Source of the DNA: Parabacteroides sp. | GTDB lineage: Bacteria; Bacteroidota; Bacteroidia; Bacteroidales; Tannerellaceae | Assembly: GCA_017937385.1 (NCBI GenBank) | Contig: JAGBDR010000009.1 | Location: 107,721-171,720, forward strand | Reading direction: 5' to 3' | Length of the DNA stretch: 64,000 nucleotides | Shown here: positions 7,242-52,754 of the stretch, piece by piece | Position numbering within the stretch: the stretch's first letter is position 1 | How the letters are laid out: each line of letters opens with the position of its first letter | Translations under genes and position numbers: made by a program | The notes under the pieces: model-generated | What the model was told of the DNA's origin: nothing | What the model saw: the letters and a program-made list of their open reading frames with translations, nothing else | The model's database searches: none

Positions 7242-7306
7242 GATTTATGATTTCAGATTTATGATTTATGAAGAGTTGATAAATCATAAATCTGAAATCA
7301 TAAATC
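7242..7306. repeat. Perfect 28-bp inverted repeat built from 7-bp units (GATTTAT), 9-nt loop
   Basis: GATTTAT-GATTTCA-GATTTAT-GATTTAT (7242-7269) is the exact reverse complement of 7279-7306. Confidence 0.95.
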
Positions 7307-9502: not shown

Positions 9503-12385
9503 CTATTTCCCGCAAACATCCTTAAACGGGCAATATGCGCAAGCTTTGCCGTTCGGGGTTTGGACGAAGGGGATTTCCGGATCGAAGATTTCATCCAAGC
9601 AATTCCGCAGACCGTTTTCAAACTCCGTGCGATAGTCGGCAAAGTCCAGGACCTGTTCCGTCTTGAACCGGTCCGTACGACGGTAAACAGCGGGATCGAA
9701 AGAGGGAGAAAAGAGGGTACGCATGTAATAGATGCCTGGTTGGATGGCGGCTGCCCCATACATCCAGGCATACATAAAGACCTGCATGACCGCTTTGGAA
9801 CGATCCGTTTCTTCCTTGTCGAAAAGGGATTCGACAGAGGTGAACTGCGTCGTTCCGCTTCCACTCTTATAGTCGATGATGCGGACAATGCCACGCACTT
9901 CGTCTATACGGTCGATGAATCCTTTCAACTGGATCTCGCTCTTATCCGTCAGCGGGAAGAGGCACTTGATTTTCTTTTCTGACTCGATATAGCGAAAGGG
10001 CGTCAGCTTGGCATCCCGTTCCAAAACTTTCTCCACATATTTGCGGATCATCTCGCCGATCAGGAAGTTCTGCCCGGTGAGCGGACGAACGACATCTGTC
10101 TTGAAGAAAATTTCGGCAAAGGCACGGGCAACCGCACCCGTCAGTTGCGGTGTATCTTTGCGGATCGCCTTCAGCAGGTCGGCCGTCACCATCTTGCCGC
10201 AGAAAGGTTGGTACAGTTCTTCCATCACCTTGTGCAGGATGCTCCCGAAGACATTGCTCTCGATCGTCTCGCTGACCTCCTCCTCTTCCCGTATCCCTTC
10301 GACCACGGAGAAATAGAATTTAAGCGGACAATCCAGATACGTATTGACCGCACTTGCCGATATTGCCCGCTCCCCGCCACGGCGGAAAGCCGCCAGACGG
10401 CTCATGACCTCCTCCGTCTTGGCCACCTGCAAAGCGGGTATCCTGGAAGAAGAGACGTTATAGACGACCAGCTTGTTCTGTATCGGTTCCTCATAATGAT
10501 AATGCAGTTGGTGCACAAAACGGCTGACCTCGCCTGTCTGCAACCCGTTGCTCCGGGTATCATAAAGCAGGCTGACATGGCTGGCACGATAAATCAACCG
10601 GTAGAAATGGTATGCCCAAACACTGTCCTGGTGCTCATAGGTCGGCAAACCGAAGCCTCGGCGAAGGTTATAAGGGATGAAAGAATTGGCCGCTTTCCTC
10701 AGCGGGAAGATCCCTTCATTCATCGAAAGGATGATCAAGCGGTCAAAGTCGAGCGCACGTGTCTCCAGAACCCCCATGATCTGCAAACCGGAAAGCGGTT
10801 CGCCGTGAAAAGGGATCGTAATCGTGTCTGTCACCCGTTTCAGCAACCGGAAATAGGTGTCGATTTTCATTTCTACATTCGCCTCCCGCATGACCTCCTT
10901 CATTCGGTTGACAGTGGCGAAATAGTGGAAGATAAACTCCTGTTCAATATCATTAATTGACAATTGACTATTGACTATTGACAATTCTTGGTCGTCCTTC
11001 TCCTTGTCAATTGCCCTATTGAGCTCCTGCAACACGTTGATCAAGTAATCGGAAAACGTTTCCACCGCAGTTACCGGAGTAAAGAGGATGGACAACAAAG
11101 GGGTCCGGTTCAGATCGTCATAAGATATGTAGATCTTGTTGTTTTCCGTAATGTCTTTTACCAGGCCGGCGACCACCTCCGGCGCGGTAGTCGAGATATA
11201 CCGGTGGTTCAAGATCGGCAAGACGTCCCGGAAATAGAACACCGGCTGCCGGTCCACATACCGGATATTTTTCTGCAAAGCCAGAATATACTCCATCAGA
11301 GAGGCGACCGGCGTACCGGCCAACGGGTATCCCATCGTCACGTTGATCCGCCGGATCTGTTCGGGGATGGCATTCAGGACCGGAATCAGCAAATGCTCGT
11401 CCGGCAGAATCACGGCCGTCCGCAATGCCTCTTCCGCGCTCATTTCATCTTCCTTGCAAAGCTCGCTCAAGATACGGTGCACTTGCTTGGCTTGACCGAT
11501 TCCGGAAGGGATGCCGATGACTTCAATGGACAATTGAGAATTGTCAATTGTCCATTGTCCATTGTCAATTGTCAATTGAGAGGGGAATTGCCGCAAATTG
11601 CGTTCCACAAAATAGGAGGCTTTGTTGTCCGGGTCCGTCACTTTCGGCGAGGCATAGTCCCAATAGAAATCGGCGATCTCCCGCCTTTGCAACTCAGAGA
11701 GGAAACGTTCCTCCGCCACAGAAAGGGCATTCAAACCAACAAACACAATTTTCACATAAGGAAGGTCACAACATTCGTTTTTCTCCATCTGCTCGACCAC
11801 TTCCTGGAAAATCATGCCCTCATATCCCTTGCCCTCGGCAGCAAGCGCCTCCCGCAAATCGATATACAAGGCGTATAAGATCTGCCAGACCGCCAAAAAC
11901 TGTTCCTGGTTTGGTGTATCTCCTTTCGGATAGAAAGAAGACCAGAAAGTCCGGATCGCCGCAATCTGTTCGGGACTCAGAAAATTGAAATCATTCTCAA
12001 TCTCACGCAGATCCGTCACGTTGGTGAAAAGCATACGGGCGTCAACCATATACTTGTCGATATCGTCGAAGTCATTCAACAGCATTTCACCCCAATAAAG
12101 GAACTCGTCGAACGTTTCGGATGAACCGCTACGGCGCAGATAAATATCATACAATTTGAACAACATACTGATCCGGTCCGCTGTCTGCTTCCCGCTCAAT
12201 TGTACAAACAAATCATTGATCGTCAGGATTGTCGGAGAGAAAAGCGGCTTCTCCGACACTTCCGACAGATATTTCTGGAAGAACAGCCCCGTACGGCGGT
12301 TCGGAAAGACAAAAGCCAACCGGCTGATTTCCGCCCCATATTTAGCATAAAAAAGGGAGGCAACCTGATATAAGAATGGTTTCAC
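9503..12385 (-). CDS. AddB/RexB-like PD-(D/E)XK nuclease with inactive helicase scaffold and Fe-S cysteines
   Basis: FVFPNRR, GLQIMGVLETR, SASAVNTYLDCPLKFY, GFIDRID...IIDYKSG, CAYCPFKDVC. Confidence 0.85.
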   Translation of the reverse strand: MKPFLYQVASLFYAKYGAEISRLAFVFPNRRTGLFFQKYLSEVSEKPLFSPTILTINDLFVQLSGKQTADRISMLFKLYDIYLRRSGSSETFDEFLYWGEMLLNDFDDIDKYMVDARMLFTNVTDLREIENDFNFLSPEQIAAIRTFWSSFYPKGDTPNQEQFLAVWQILYALYIDLREALAAEGKGYEGMIFQEVVEQMEKNECCDLPYVKIVFVGLNALSVAEERFLSELQRREIADFYWDYASPKVTDPDNKASYFVERNLRQFPSQLTIDNGQWTIDNSQLSIEVIGIPSGIGQAKQVHRILSELCKEDEMSAEEALRTAVILPDEHLLIPVLNAIPEQIRRINVTMGYPLAGTPVASLMEYILALQKNIRYVDRQPVFYFRDVLPILNHRYISTTAPEVVAGLVKDITENNKIYISYDDLNRTPLLSILFTPVTAVETFSDYLINVLQELNRAIDKEKDDQELSIVNSQLSINDIEQEFIFHYFATVNRMKEVMREANVEMKIDTYFRLLKRVTDTITIPFHGEPLSGLQIMGVLETRALDFDRLIILSMNEGIFPLRKAANSFIPYNLRRGFGLPTYEHQDSVWAYHFYRLIYRASHVSLLYDTRSNGLQTGEVSRFVHQLHYHYEEPIQNKLVVYNVSSSRIPALQVAKTEEVMSRLAAFRRGGERAISASAVNTYLDCPLKFYFSVVEGIREEEEVSETIESNVFGSILHKVMEELYQPFCGKMVTADLLKAIRKDTPQLTGAVARAFAEIFFKTDVVRPLTGQNFLIGEMIRKYVEKVLERDAKLTPFRYIESEKKIKCLFPLTDKSEIQLKGFIDRIDEVRGIVRIIDYKSGSGTTQFTSVESLFDKEETDRSKAVMQVFMYAWMYGAAAIQPGIYYMRTLFSPSFDPAVYRRTDRFKTEQVLDFADYRTEFENGLRNCLDEIFDPEIPFVQTPNGKACAYCPFKDVCGK
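10955..10986. repeat. Intragenic 7-bp tandem repeat (AATTGAC/TATTGAC), in frame in the AddB-like gene
   Basis: AATTGAC AATTGAC TATTGAC TATTGAC AATT; encodes LSIVNSQLSIN. Confidence 0.85.
11525..11580. repeat. Intragenic 7-bp tandem repeat (8 units, AATTGTC type), in frame in the AddB-like gene
   Basis: AATGGAC AATTGAG AATTGTC AATTGTC CATTGTC CATTGTC AATTGTC AATTGAG; encodes SQLTIDNGQWTIDNSQLSI. Confidence 0.9.
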
Positions 12386-13590: not shown

Positions 13591-13662
13591 CAAACCTTGC
13601 AGCCAAACAGGAAAGATAGGAAAGCAAACAGAATATTCTAAAAACAAACGATCCGAATAAAA

Positions 13663-13735
13663 CAAAAAAAGGCTATCCGTCACGGACAGCCAATCTTCAT
13701 TGTTAACCTTAAATCTAATACCATGAAAAACACAG
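13663..13735 (-). ncRNA. Candidate ~70-nt small RNA with own promoter and intrinsic terminator
   Basis: Minus-strand TATATTTG -7 box (13738-13745), then GTGTTTTTCATGGTATTAGATTTAAGGTTAACAATGAAGATT, then GGCTGTCCGTGACGGATAGCC-T7; resembles a multicopy Bacteroidales intergenic motif from memory. Confidence 0.65.
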
Positions 13736-18859: not shown

Positions 18860-20305
18860 ATGGGAAATCCAAAAGCATTCCTCACCATACACCGGCAAGA
18901 AGCCGGCTATCGCCCCGTCCACGAACGGATCGACGACTTCAGCGAAGTCGAACAAACGCTCAACAGCAGCGACCGCCGCACGCAGGCCTCCCGTTGCATG
19001 GACTGCGGCGTACCCTTCTGCCACTGGGCCTGTCCGTTGGGCAACAAACAACCCGAATGGCAAGACCTGCTCTACAAAGGCAAATGGCGCGAAGCCTTCC
19101 ACATACTGGAACAGACCTGCGACTTTCCGGAGTTTACCGGACGCATCTGCCCCGCCCTCTGCGAGAAGAGCTGTGTACTGAAATTGAGTTGCGACGAACC
19201 TGTCACGATACGCGAGAACGAAGCGGCCATCGTGGAAGCGGCTTTCCGCGAAGGATACATCCAACCGGTCCGCCCCGTCCGCAACGGCAAGCGGGTGGCC
19301 GTGATCGGAAGCGGTCCTGCCGGATTGGCAGCCGCGAACCAACTGAACCGCCGGGGCTATGAAGTGACGGTATTCGAAAAATACGAACTGCCGGGTGGCC
19401 TGCTCCGGTTCGGTATTCCGAACTTCAAATTAGGGAAGAACATCATCGACCGGCGCATCCGGCTGATGGAACAGGAAGGAATCATCTTCAAGGTCAACAC
19501 GCTGGTCGGAAGCGACGTATCGGCCAAAGAAATCGTTTCGACATTCGATGCCGTCTGTGTCGCCATCGGTTCCGAAGTGCCGCGCGACCTCCCCATCGAA
19601 GGGCGTAACCTGAAAGGGGTTCATTTCGCCCTCGACCTGTTGTCGCAACAGAACCGCCTCCTCGAAGGCATCGCCATCCCGCCCCAAAGTATCATCGACT
19701 GCAAGGGAAAGAAAGTACTCGTCATCGGTGGCGGCGACACGGGAAGCGATTGTGTCGGGACCGCCAACCGCCACAAAGCGACAAGCGTGACACAAATCGA
19801 GATCATGCCCCAGCCGCCCATCGGACAGAACCCGGCAACTCCCTGGCCTCTGTACCCGCAAGTGCTGAAAACGAGCAGCAGCCACGAAGAGGGATGCGTC
19901 CGTCGTTGGAACTTAGCCTCCGTCCGTTTTGTAGGCGACAAGAACACGTTGAAAGGCGTCGAAGTCGAAGAGGTGGAATGGCTGCCGGCTCTGGAAGGAG
20001 AACGGCCGGAAATGCGCAGGAGCGGACGCACGGAGGTGATCGAAGCCGACCTCGTGTTTCTCGCGATGGGTTTCATCCACCCCGAACAGGAAGGCCTCAT
20101 CAAAGAACTGTCCCTCGCTACCGACGCACGCGGCAACATCGCCGTCGATCCGGCCACCAACCGGATAGCCGGCACCAACATCTTCGCCGCAGGCGATGCC
20201 ATCAGCGGAGCCAGCCTCGTCGTCCGCGCCATGGCCTCCGGCCGCAAGACAGCCGTCGCCATCGACGTGGCAATTGGCAATGGACAATTGAAAATTGAAA
20301 ATTAA
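18860..20305 (+). CDS. gltD: Glutamate synthase small subunit
   Basis: MGNPKAF start, CMDCGVPFCHWACP, GSGPAGL, IGGGDTGSDC, FAAGDA; the ORF-track 5' extension (18671) only reads through the repeat array. Confidence 0.96.
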   Translation: MGNPKAFLTIHRQEAGYRPVHERIDDFSEVEQTLNSSDRRTQASRCMDCGVPFCHWACPLGNKQPEWQDLLYKGKWREAFHILEQTCDFPEFTGRICPALCEKSCVLKLSCDEPVTIRENEAAIVEAAFREGYIQPVRPVRNGKRVAVIGSGPAGLAAANQLNRRGYEVTVFEKYELPGGLLRFGIPNFKLGKNIIDRRIRLMEQEGIIFKVNTLVGSDVSAKEIVSTFDAVCVAIGSEVPRDLPIEGRNLKGVHFALDLLSQQNRLLEGIAIPPQSIIDCKGKKVLVIGGGDTGSDCVGTANRHKATSVTQIEIMPQPPIGQNPATPWPLYPQVLKTSSSHEEGCVRRWNLASVRFVGDKNTLKGVEVEEVEWLPALEGERPEMRRSGRTEVIEADLVFLAMGFIHPEQEGLIKELSLATDARGNIAVDPATNRIAGTNIFAAGDAISGASLVVRAMASGRKTAVAIDVAIGNGQLKIEN

Positions 20306-20385
20306 AAAAGATAAGAGAAACAAAGAAACAAACAATATGTTCAACCCCCCAATTGTCAATTGTCCATTGTCAATTGTCAATTGAA
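20272..20385. repeat. Inverted pair of 7-bp tandem tracts spanning the gltD stop and asnB leader
   Basis: AATTGGC AATGGAC AATTGAA AATTGAA AATTAA (20272-20305) versus AATTGTC AATTGTC CATTGTC AATTGTC AATTGAA (20351-20385). Confidence 0.85.
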
Positions 20386-51897: not shown

Positions 51898-52746
51898 ATG
51901 AAAAAGATCTATTATATCCTTTCAGGCTTATTGGCCTGCTTTTCTCCAGCTTTCGGACAGAGCGATGCTGACACCGTAACCTCCGCATCGGAACAGGTTC
52001 CTGCGAAAATAGTCACTATCAGCACGAGTGCCGGGACCTTGAAAGCCAAACTGTATAACGACGTTCCGAACCACGTCCGGACCTTTATCGAACGTGCCAA
52101 ACAGGGCGAATACAACGGGACATTGTTCACCCGCGTGCTCCCTGAATTCATGATACAGGGCGGCGCCCCCGATTCGCGCAATGCTCCGGCCGGTGCCCGT
52201 TGCGGTTTCGGAGACCGCAATTCGGAAATCATGCCGGAGATAAAGCCTCACCACTTCAACAAACGAGGCGCATTGGCTGCTCCCCGCCAGAACGACGACA
52301 TCAACCCGCAAAAGAAATCAGATATGTCGCAATTCTATATCGTACAAGGGAAAGTCTACACCAACGGCGAACTGGATACGCTGGAAATGATTGCCAACCA
52401 GGATATCAAAGAAAAGGCCATGCAGAAGTTCTTCTATCCTGTCCGCGCCGAACTGCGTATGCAGAAAGCCAGCAACAAACGCGAATACCAGAAACGCCTG
52501 CGCAAGATCAATGCCCAAGTCGACTCGATGGTGCGTGCCACACCCGGCCACTTGCTGTTCACCGAAGAACAACGGAAAGCCTACACCACCGAAGGCGGCT
52601 GCCACCATTTAGACGGTCATTATACCGTATATGGCGAACTCATTGAAGGATTCGACGTACTCGATGCCATCGCCGGGCAACCTCGCGACGCGTATGACCG
52701 CCCGAAAAAAGACATCCGGATTATTCAATTGACAATTGAGAATTGA
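51898..52746 (+). CDS. Periplasmic cyclophilin-type peptidyl-prolyl isomerase
   Basis: Y.GTLFTRV...FMIQGG, RGALAAPR, SQFYIV, HLDGHYTVYGE. Confidence 0.9.
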   Translation: MKKIYYILSGLLACFSPAFGQSDADTVTSASEQVPAKIVTISTSAGTLKAKLYNDVPNHVRTFIERAKQGEYNGTLFTRVLPEFMIQGGAPDSRNAPAGARCGFGDRNSEIMPEIKPHHFNKRGALAAPRQNDDINPQKKSDMSQFYIVQGKVYTNGELDTLEMIANQDIKEKAMQKFFYPVRAELRMQKASNKREYQKRLRKINAQVDSMVRATPGHLLFTEEQRKAYTTEGGCHHLDGHYTVYGELIEGFDVLDAIAGQPRDAYDRPKKDIRIIQLTIEN

Positions 52747-52754
52747 CAATTTAT
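52727..52754 (+). repeat. 7-bp tandem tract supplying the cyclophilin stop codon
   Basis: AATTGAC AATTGAG AATTGAC AATTTAT; reads QLTIEN*. Confidence 0.75.

Follow-up and report, generated by a model that had tools for sequence, protein, structure and literature searches.

Two in-frame tracts in an AddB-like nuclease gene of Parabacteroides are probably copies of a dispersed heptamer-armed hairpin repeat

We asked how two tracts of tandem heptanucleotides came to be part of the reading frame of a nuclease gene in Parabacteroides sp., and whether they do anything there. The gene, which encodes an AddB-like PD-(D/E)XK helicase-nuclease subunit, lies in a stretch of 64,000 nucleotides (nt) from assembly GCA_017937385.1 (contig JAGBDR010000009.1, positions 107,721 to 171,720), called the window below. 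The tracts, site 1 and site 2, are listed with the other features in Table 1. Our analysis indicates that they are probably two in-frame copies of a dispersed family of hairpin repeats, carried as tolerated passengers in linkers of the nuclease.

On the mRNA, site 1 consists of the units CAATTGA CAATTGA CAATGGA CAATGGA CAATTGA CAATTCT CAATTGT CCATTGA, which read QLTIDNGQWTIDNSQLSI. Six A-side units, ending in the junction unit CAATTCT, are followed by two units of the CAATTGT type, and the tract is palindromic by itself, with both orientations present. Site 2 is the 3' arm of a decayed hairpin: a one-unit remnant of the 5' arm (GCAATTGAC) and a purine-rich loop (AAGGAGAAGGACGACCAAG), which extend to position 11014, precede four 3' arm units (AATTGTC AATAGTC AATAGTC AATTGTC AATT). 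Read as GCAATTGAC-AAGGAGAAGGACGACCAAG-AATTGTCAATAGTCAATAGTCAATTGTCAATT on the mRNA, the whole gives AIDKEKDDQELSIVNSQLSI. The arm itself (10955-10986) is an (AATTGAC)-type tract on the + strand; the mRNA (- strand) has GAATTGTCAATAGTCAATAGTCAATTGTCAATTAAT, which encodes ELSIVNSQLSIN (amino acids (aa) 467-478, with LSIVNSQLSIN at aa 468-478). Both tracts are thus, by conceptual translation, in frame within the open reading frame (ORF) of the nuclease. A sequence-only reading of the locus had described the two tracts with their peptides, their mutual inversion and the codons AAT-GGA and AAT-TCT where a pure repeat would have AAT-TGA, and all of this was confirmed; the main arms are inverted relative to each other as given in Table 1. 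A 14-mer searched with at most two mismatches had 26 matches in the window, versus 0.72 expected.

The peptides are not a feature of the ancestral protein. We compared 30 + 80 orthologous loci. Where identity is 51-83% (P. distasonis, goldsteinii, gordonii, leei, faecis and Dysgonomonas), short acidic linkers occupy both sites, with the pattern PSxYPLPxEEKVxTxIEV for the first and NKVMxxLSxEEEEDATQRTNDLE for the second, and on a tree heptamer-periodic peptides are found only in a Parabacteroides subclade at ≥88% identity. They are of two kinds: QLTIDNG/QLSIVNC, from CAATTGA/T, and ELKVESG/QLSTFNS, from AAGTTGA/TCAACTT. Each kind occurs only in genomes where the matching heptamer family is also present genome-wide; the source genome (assembly G000, 3.73 Mb, 47.8% G+C; closest named relatives P. 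massiliensis, 91%, and P. acidifaciens, 88-89%) has no heptamers of the AAGTTGA type. UMGS1511, with zero matches to the CAATTG family (Q-family) and only three to the related family, has only decayed remnants at the sites. Because the heptamer peptides are confined to one subclade and to genomes with the same repeat family, the sequences mark them as derived, and orthologues from heptamer-free genomes have the short acidic linkers in their place. Full two-arm versions of site 2 with related loops lie at the same position in L002, L004, L009 and L107, and at site 1 of strain L032, which is 97% identical, there is a classic arm-loop-arm hairpin, in frame and longer by 12 nt. Of the 91 differences between L032 and the source gene, 25 cluster at site 1, and one base is changed at site 2. 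Close relatives differ by steps of 7 aa (21 nt, three units).

The tracts belong to a repeat family that is abundant in the source genome. The CAATTG[A/T] family comprises 220 tracts in ∼151 elements, versus 0 in a shuffled genome, and exact tandem runs of period 7 number 269, against ≤33 for each of the remaining periods between 4 and 12. In each element a variable loop is flanked by two arms in inverted orientation, made of four to five CAATTG[A/T] heptamers. At least two tracts are present in 66 elements, and in the 63 arm-loop-arm hairpins listed the A-arm always precedes the T-arm. The arms (21-35 nt) are complementary including their variant units, since fixed variants (CAATGGA/TCCATTG and CAATTGAT/ATCAATTG) are mirrored between them. 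The loops (11-136 nt) of non-coding copies are unrelated to each other and have no common core. Two main units account for the period-7 signal, AATTGAC and AAATCAT. A second heptamer family, GATTTAT/ATAAATC, is equally abundant (192 tracts).

About 92% of the CAATTG-family elements are non-coding and ∼8% are coding. The elements are spread across tandem, convergent and divergent gaps in the proportions of all gene pairs, and on this ground we rejected a role as terminators. None of the hairpins in the window matched an Rfam family. A link to restriction-modification was also rejected, as CAATTG, an MfeI-type palindrome, occurs at about the expected rate away from the tracts (observed/expected 0.96). 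Other palindromes are strongly under-represented in the source genome, namely CATATG (observed/expected 0.09), CTCGAG (0.17) and GCGCGC (0.18); such strong under-representation is the usual footprint of restriction-modification systems. The CAATTG family is abundant in ∼10 of 25 Parabacteroides genomes and was not found in 16 other families of the order; it is confined to part of the genus Parabacteroides.

Why, then, is the reading frame open? Because 7 = 1 mod 3, (CAATTGT)n reads QLSIVNC in every frame, with no stop, and (CAATTGA)n has TGA in each of its three frames, once per three units. In the consensus CAATTGA arm a CAATGGA unit is present, so that a single frame, IDNGQLTI, stays open, and the purine-rich loops encode a peptide rich in E, K and D. 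The variants at the would-be stops are not peculiar to the nuclease gene: among the units of non-coding arms CAATGGA ranks second in frequency (122 of ∼790), CAATTCT is a usual terminal unit of the family, and 107 of 202 non-coding arms in the A orientation already contain the open IDNGQLTI frame. The positions of the variants had been correctly described, but reading them as compensation specific to coding sequence is not supported. Since they are ordinary in non-coding copies, the open frames are best read, from these counts, as survivorship of those copies that are open in the frame of their host. About one insertion in three would be open, and only those in tolerant loops would persist. 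We also considered that the family might be 'designed' to be open, and rejected this, as 45% of the non-coding hairpins, taken whole, have one or more open frames, versus 40% of shuffles. The GATTTAT family has stops on both strands, and 0 of its 192 tracts are read through by an ORF.

If the tracts are copies of a dispersed repeat, other genes should contain them as well. In the source genome ∼11 CAATTG-family elements lie in bona fide proteins; the hosts are listed in Table 1, and one host of an in-frame element is a phage-like protein. Of 23 CarB orthologues that we compared, 20 do not have the insert. In MetH, the three sites seem to coincide with linkers between domains, going by the domain boundaries of the E. 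coli protein. The idea that coding copies are eroded hairpins did not hold in general, as coding stems elsewhere are as strong as non-coding ones. In the relative L040 we observed another ORF (G041:C1:1315700-1318700) with two in-frame hairpins of the AAGTTGA family (…IVESGKVKGESE…AVESGKLKVESENANSDAKQLSPFTFHLST…); the hairpin loop in this ORF is identical to a loop in the AddB-like gene of G041.

Table 1. Positions of the nuclease gene, its two heptamer elements, other repeat elements in the window and further in-frame copies in the source genome (translations are predicted)
Feature	Coordinates	Strand	Remarks
AddB-like PD-(D/E)XK helicase-nuclease subunit gene (P0001)	9503..12385	-	ORF, 2883 nt, 960 aa, GTG start
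Site-1 element, palindromic heptamer tract, loop gone	11523..11580	-	translated (S)QLTIDNGQWTIDNSQLSI(E), aa 270-287 = 11525-11578
Site-2 element, decayed hairpin	10952..11014	-	translated AIDKEKDDQELSIVNSQLSIN, aa 458-478
Site-2 arm complementary to 11546-11577 of site 1	10955..10986	+	32 nt, 88% complementary, 559 nt apart
Second heptamer family (GATTTAT/ATAAATC), example in window	7242-7306		
Other CAATTG-family element in window	20272-20385		two arms bracket a 51-nt intergenic spacer; right arm ends ∼20 nt before next ATG
Other CAATTG-family element in window	52724-52754		
CarB	C22:44941-48225		in-frame heptamer hairpin, e.g. KWTIDNGQLTMKKEYRDSDNCQLSIVNCQLE
CarA	C22:43699-44889		in-frame heptamer hairpin
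MetH-like	C123:13241-16975		in-frame heptamer hairpins, 3 sites
MurC	C13:41140-42552		in-frame heptamer hairpin
RND pump	C13:93546-96698		in-frame heptamer hairpin
MiaA, C-terminus	C110:7363-8367		in-frame heptamer hairpin
Further ORF	C33:11815-13467		in-frame heptamer hairpin
Further ORF	C123:1884-4442		in-frame heptamer hairpin

Next we considered the protein that carries the inserts. The nuclease has a PDDEXK_1 domain at aa 675-958 (Pfam, E 1e-40) and invariant cysteines C686, C949, C952 and C958. An AlphaFold model computed from 44 diverse orthologues (mean predicted local distance difference test score (pLDDT) 83.9, predicted template-modelling score 0.62; an earlier alignment of 21 sequences gave a pLDDT of 48 and was unusable) had as its best structural match in Foldseek the AddB chain B of Bacillus AddAB (4cej_B, E 3.6e-25, TM 0.54). 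A search of solved structures by sequence with the nuclease gave no match. The features of the AddB fold, an inactive N-terminal half resembling SF1, a C-terminal PD-(D/E)XK nuclease and a Cys cluster, are all present. Matches to AddB models were weak and sub-threshold (addB_alphas, 71.7 bits against the NCBIfam equivalog cut-off of 486.5) and no addA partner was found beside the gene, whose neighbours encode an aldo-keto reductase and an SSF transporter. For these two reasons we keep the label 'AddB-like': the proposed identity holds at the level of the fold, and the protein is not an equivalog. The gene is free of internal stops in 59 of 61 Parabacteroides genomes. Just upstream of the neighbouring aldo-keto reductase gene, at 13661-13733 (-) of the window, lies a match to the FopS small RNA of Bacteroidetes (Rfam RF04319, 76.6 bits).

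Both sites fall in the most variable parts of this protein. Among the 44 orthologues, the least conserved windows are at aa 461 (first) and aa 271 (second), and large variation in length is limited to the two sites (10-43 aa at site 2, 18-37 aa at site 1). Two other Parabacteroides species have charged or Ala/Ser/Pro-rich low-complexity inserts of 50-80 aa, with no heptamer periodicity, at the same linkers (G008:C34:115776-119057 and G002:C248:37-3099; L034, L035). In the AlphaFold model, residues 267-285 at site 1 are coil (block pLDDT ∼63), and residues 467-474, at the tip between helices 441-466 and 477-502, are the segment of lowest confidence (pLDDT below 50). Both sites are hypervariable, permissive surface linkers. 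Two assemblies of the genus, G012 and G046, break at site 2.

We then asked how the elements reached these linkers. Within a genome the loops of sites 1 and 2 are alike (23 of 24 nt in L005, 21 of 24 nt in L007, and DNEESDDKLSIVN at both sites in P. acidifaciens), and between genomes the loops at the AddB-like sites differ. P. hominis NSJ-79 (L106) has a full hairpin at site 1 and the ancestral acidic linker at site 2; its close relative Parabacteroides sp. ASD2025 (L105) has hairpins with the same loop at both sites. The shared loops and the site-1-only state of P. hominis indicate that site 2 was filled secondarily. From these sequences, site 2 was most simply copied from site 1, and the two would since have evolved in concert; the presence/absence polymorphism between P. 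hominis and ASD2025 could date the second copy. The same arm-plus-loop units were also found at unlinked intergenic loci and in another coding gene, and identity of arms and loop at unlinked loci implies that whole units are copied.

Taken together, these data suggest the following course of events. The comparison of relatives indicates that the subclade's ancestor would already have had one copy fixed in the AddB-like gene, at linker 1. A second copy, with the same arms and loop, would have displaced the acidic linker 2; its probable source is site 1, through copying or gene conversion. Both may have persisted because they landed in the two surface loops of the protein that tolerate change best. 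Later change would consist of slippage, of which the in-frame steps survive, conversion of arms between related heptamer families, and decay. In the source genome the loop of site 1 and most of the 5' arm of site 2 appear to be gone, and for this reason what is left resembles an inverted pair set far apart. As passengers, the segments themselves would do little or nothing for the protein or the mRNA.

Several observations weigh against this account. The source genome lacked a Y1 (PF01797)/RAYT transposase, i.e. one associated with repetitive extragenic palindromic (REP) elements; of the seven further genomes searched that bear the family, six lacked it too (the controls were positive), and the seventh, G005, contained only a 45-residue PF01797 fragment with two stop codons. 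A parent insertion sequence was not found in a search limited to Y1. No target-site duplication was evident: 33 of 63 hairpins had none and 22 of 63 shared 1 nt, close to the result with permuted flanks. A conserved loop was not found among the non-coding copies. At both sites the element takes the place of a linker of similar length instead of being cleanly inserted, and PSQL at the left border of site 1 is ancestral, so that growth in situ from a CAATTG seed is a possible origin. Two-arm coding copies elsewhere form hairpins of -31.5 kcal/mol, versus -29.3 kcal/mol for non-coding copies, and retention of this strength could mean that the structure is maintained. Finally, the neutrality of the inserts is an assumption, and expression of the peptides is predicted from the ORF.

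Most of these points are shared by a rival account, which we regard as rather unlikely, that the tracts arose in place: ancestral CAATTG linker codons would have grown by slippage and inverted (template-switch) copying and would later have been made similar to other loci by gene conversion. It would explain a linker that was replaced and not lengthened, the PSQL (CAATTG-like) and I-E (ATTGA) that are ancestral at the borders of site 1, the lack of both target duplication and transposase, and the mutually unrelated loops of the non-coding copies. It does not explain why identical arm-plus-loop units occur at several unlinked loci, intergenic and coding, why loops are common to both AddB-like sites, or why variant positions in the arms are fixed genome-wide, all of which point to copying of whole units.

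The heptamer-armed hairpins may be an undescribed self-propagating repeat that spreads by a transposase-free route (template switching or gene conversion) and, through slippage, generates frameshift null alleles of a DNA-repair gene at measurable frequency in gut populations. We consider this extension doubtful, if conceivable. It is suggested by arms apparently kept alike genome-wide, by the invasion of coding linkers of essential enzymes, by linker-to-linker copying within one gene and by the block switch between CAATTGA and AAGTTGA at orthologous sites.

Could the two tracts act through the mRNA instead? Such a role, in which a stem, local or across the 540 nt, would control how stable the mRNA is, its cleavage by RNase III or how the nuclease is translated, seems very unlikely to us. 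The suggestion that the tracts can pair is thermodynamically sound: the inter-site duplex is predicted at -47.7 kcal/mol, the centroid fold of a 741-nt piece contains inter-site pairs, and site 1 forms a 14-bp hairpin of -23.9 kcal/mol (local fold of site 2, -17.1 kcal/mol); strong stems are also kept by coding copies in other genes. Yet in the ensemble 29.5 bases of site 1 pair within site 1 and 11.5 with site 2, so that local pairing dominates and inter-site pairing is the minority form, and the folding z-score of the whole region is only -2.2. Furthermore, it is at these two sites that the arms have decayed, relatives with different arm sets or with none have an intact gene, no Rfam family matches, and ribosomes would unwind a stem in the coding region. 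On the folding models, a role for inter-site pairing is possible but unsupported.

The proposal that gain or loss of one unit could make the gene phase-variable fared no better. Under it, 7-nt slippage would toggle the AddB-like gene as a contingency locus and so modulate recombination or repair. The unit length is indeed not a multiple of 3, but neither site of the source gene has more than two identical consecutive units, and the three strains of the species are all in frame, their sole difference in length being 12 nt. All database proteins listed are likewise in frame, although a protein search could not return halves. The own allele of the source species had 0 matches in the metagenome contigs scanned. 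In a sister species, whose site-2 allele has three near-identical AAGTTGA units, we compared 61 human-gut metagenome contigs: 55 had the standard length, one was shorter by 15 nt and one by 21 nt (both in frame), and two error-prone contigs lacked 1 nt. The remaining two, L078 (OGOL01008646.1) and L086 (OROL01021046.1), which are independent, lacked exactly one 7-nt AAGTTGA unit, which brings a stop right after ...AVEGGKLKV. Both are of low coverage (1.4 for L086) and similar contigs (L048, L077) have unrelated frameshifts; L078 has no other frameshift in the gene. These alleles are either real slippage or a low-coverage artefact, and none with an added unit (+7) was observed. In the sister species, site 1 has no identical neighbouring units and showed no variation in 43 contigs. 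The -7 alleles at site 2 and the invariance at site 1 suggest that slippage occurs where units are identical. Moreover, the same elements lie in the essential CarB, MurC and MetH, where switching off would be lethal or cause auxotrophy. Phase variation of the gene in the source species is thus unsupported, and we think it highly improbable.

That the tracts are ancestral or convergent low-complexity coding sequence merely resembling the repeat has nothing in its favour except similar linker lengths, and can be given practically no credence in view of the exact heptamer periodicity at the DNA level, the identity to ∼150 non-coding copies and the absence from orthologues outside the clade, by which it was already refuted.

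How do the heptamer hairpins compare with known systems? The closest parallel is with Rickettsia palindromic elements (RPE), to which the locus had been likened. RPE are described as units of 100-150 bp with a conserved consensus and peptide (Ogata et al. 2000, via PMC10969869), and as a dispersed palindromic family with intergenic copies and in-frame copies in unrelated housekeeping genes, which adds a peptide segment at fold-compatible positions and for which no transposase is known (PMC10969869). Here, too, a dispersed hairpin family contributes repeat-derived segments in frame to several unrelated conserved genes, at fold-compatible surface sites, and absence of the insert from orthologues was seen for the AddB-like gene and CarB. 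What differs is that only the tandem-heptamer arms are conserved, around loops of varying length, that the coding share is low where that of RPE-1 is much higher, and that the phylum is Bacteroidota. There is neither a conserved full-length consensus or peptide of ∼100-150 bp nor homology to RPE-1 to RPE-10, and no sequence relation at all. Judged by their sequences, the heptamer hairpins would work like RPE and are not a member; by analogy, the case appears to be an RPE-like phenomenon in Bacteroidota.

With heptanucleotide tandem families such as cyanobacterial STRR and the TAACTGA repeats (Mrazek et al. 2007, via PMC4679880), the family shares 7-nt tandem units that are lineage-specific, dispersed at hundreds of sites, mostly between genes and often near start codons, and translatable on one strand, the other containing stops. 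Unlike these repeats, the units here form inverted arms of fixed size with fixed variant positions and lie in frame inside conserved enzymes, for which we found no report in other heptamer families. MITEs (miniature transposable elements with inverted repeats), REP and REPIN sequences are likewise short non-autonomous hairpin repeats with terminal inverted repeats, and intragenic in-frame fusions are known for ERIC, BOX and Anabaena MITEs (PMC10969869). The heptamer hairpins differ from MITEs in having no target-site duplication and no conserved internal sequence or size class, and from REP/REPIN in that the eight family-bearing genomes contain no Y1/RAYT transposase beyond the G005 fragment. 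With simple sequence repeat contingency loci (Haemophilus, Neisseria) they share a unit inside an ORF that is not a multiple of 3, and perhaps one-unit frameshift deletions, as in the two low-coverage contigs of the sister species. They differ in that very short, impure tracts contain no more than two identical units in a row, that the host is a housekeeping gene, and that no on/off polymorphism was seen in the three strains of the source species.

The repeats and peptides were not found in the literature searched, and searches for in-frame palindromic elements in Bacteroidota gave only general papers on MITEs, RPE and heptamers. What is new, as far as these searches reach, is that internal linkers of conserved enzymes are occupied in frame, that a translatable family contrasts with an untranslatable one, and that two copies in one gene evolve in concert. 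The two families form a natural experiment on the translatability of repeats: the one with a stop-free strand is found in genes, whereas the one with stops on both strands never is. For the CAATTG repeats no transposase or target duplication was found, yet identical arm-plus-loop copies are present at several loci and two sites of one gene show concerted evolution. Inserts of this kind are a source of linker evolution, of strain-level variation in protein length, of broken assemblies and of mis-annotation, and the peptides QLSIVNC, IDNGQLTI, ESGELKV and QLSTFNS can serve as markers for them in annotation. The case shows that housekeeping proteins of common gut Bacteroidota, like those of Rickettsia, can take up repeats of a selfish or structural nature.

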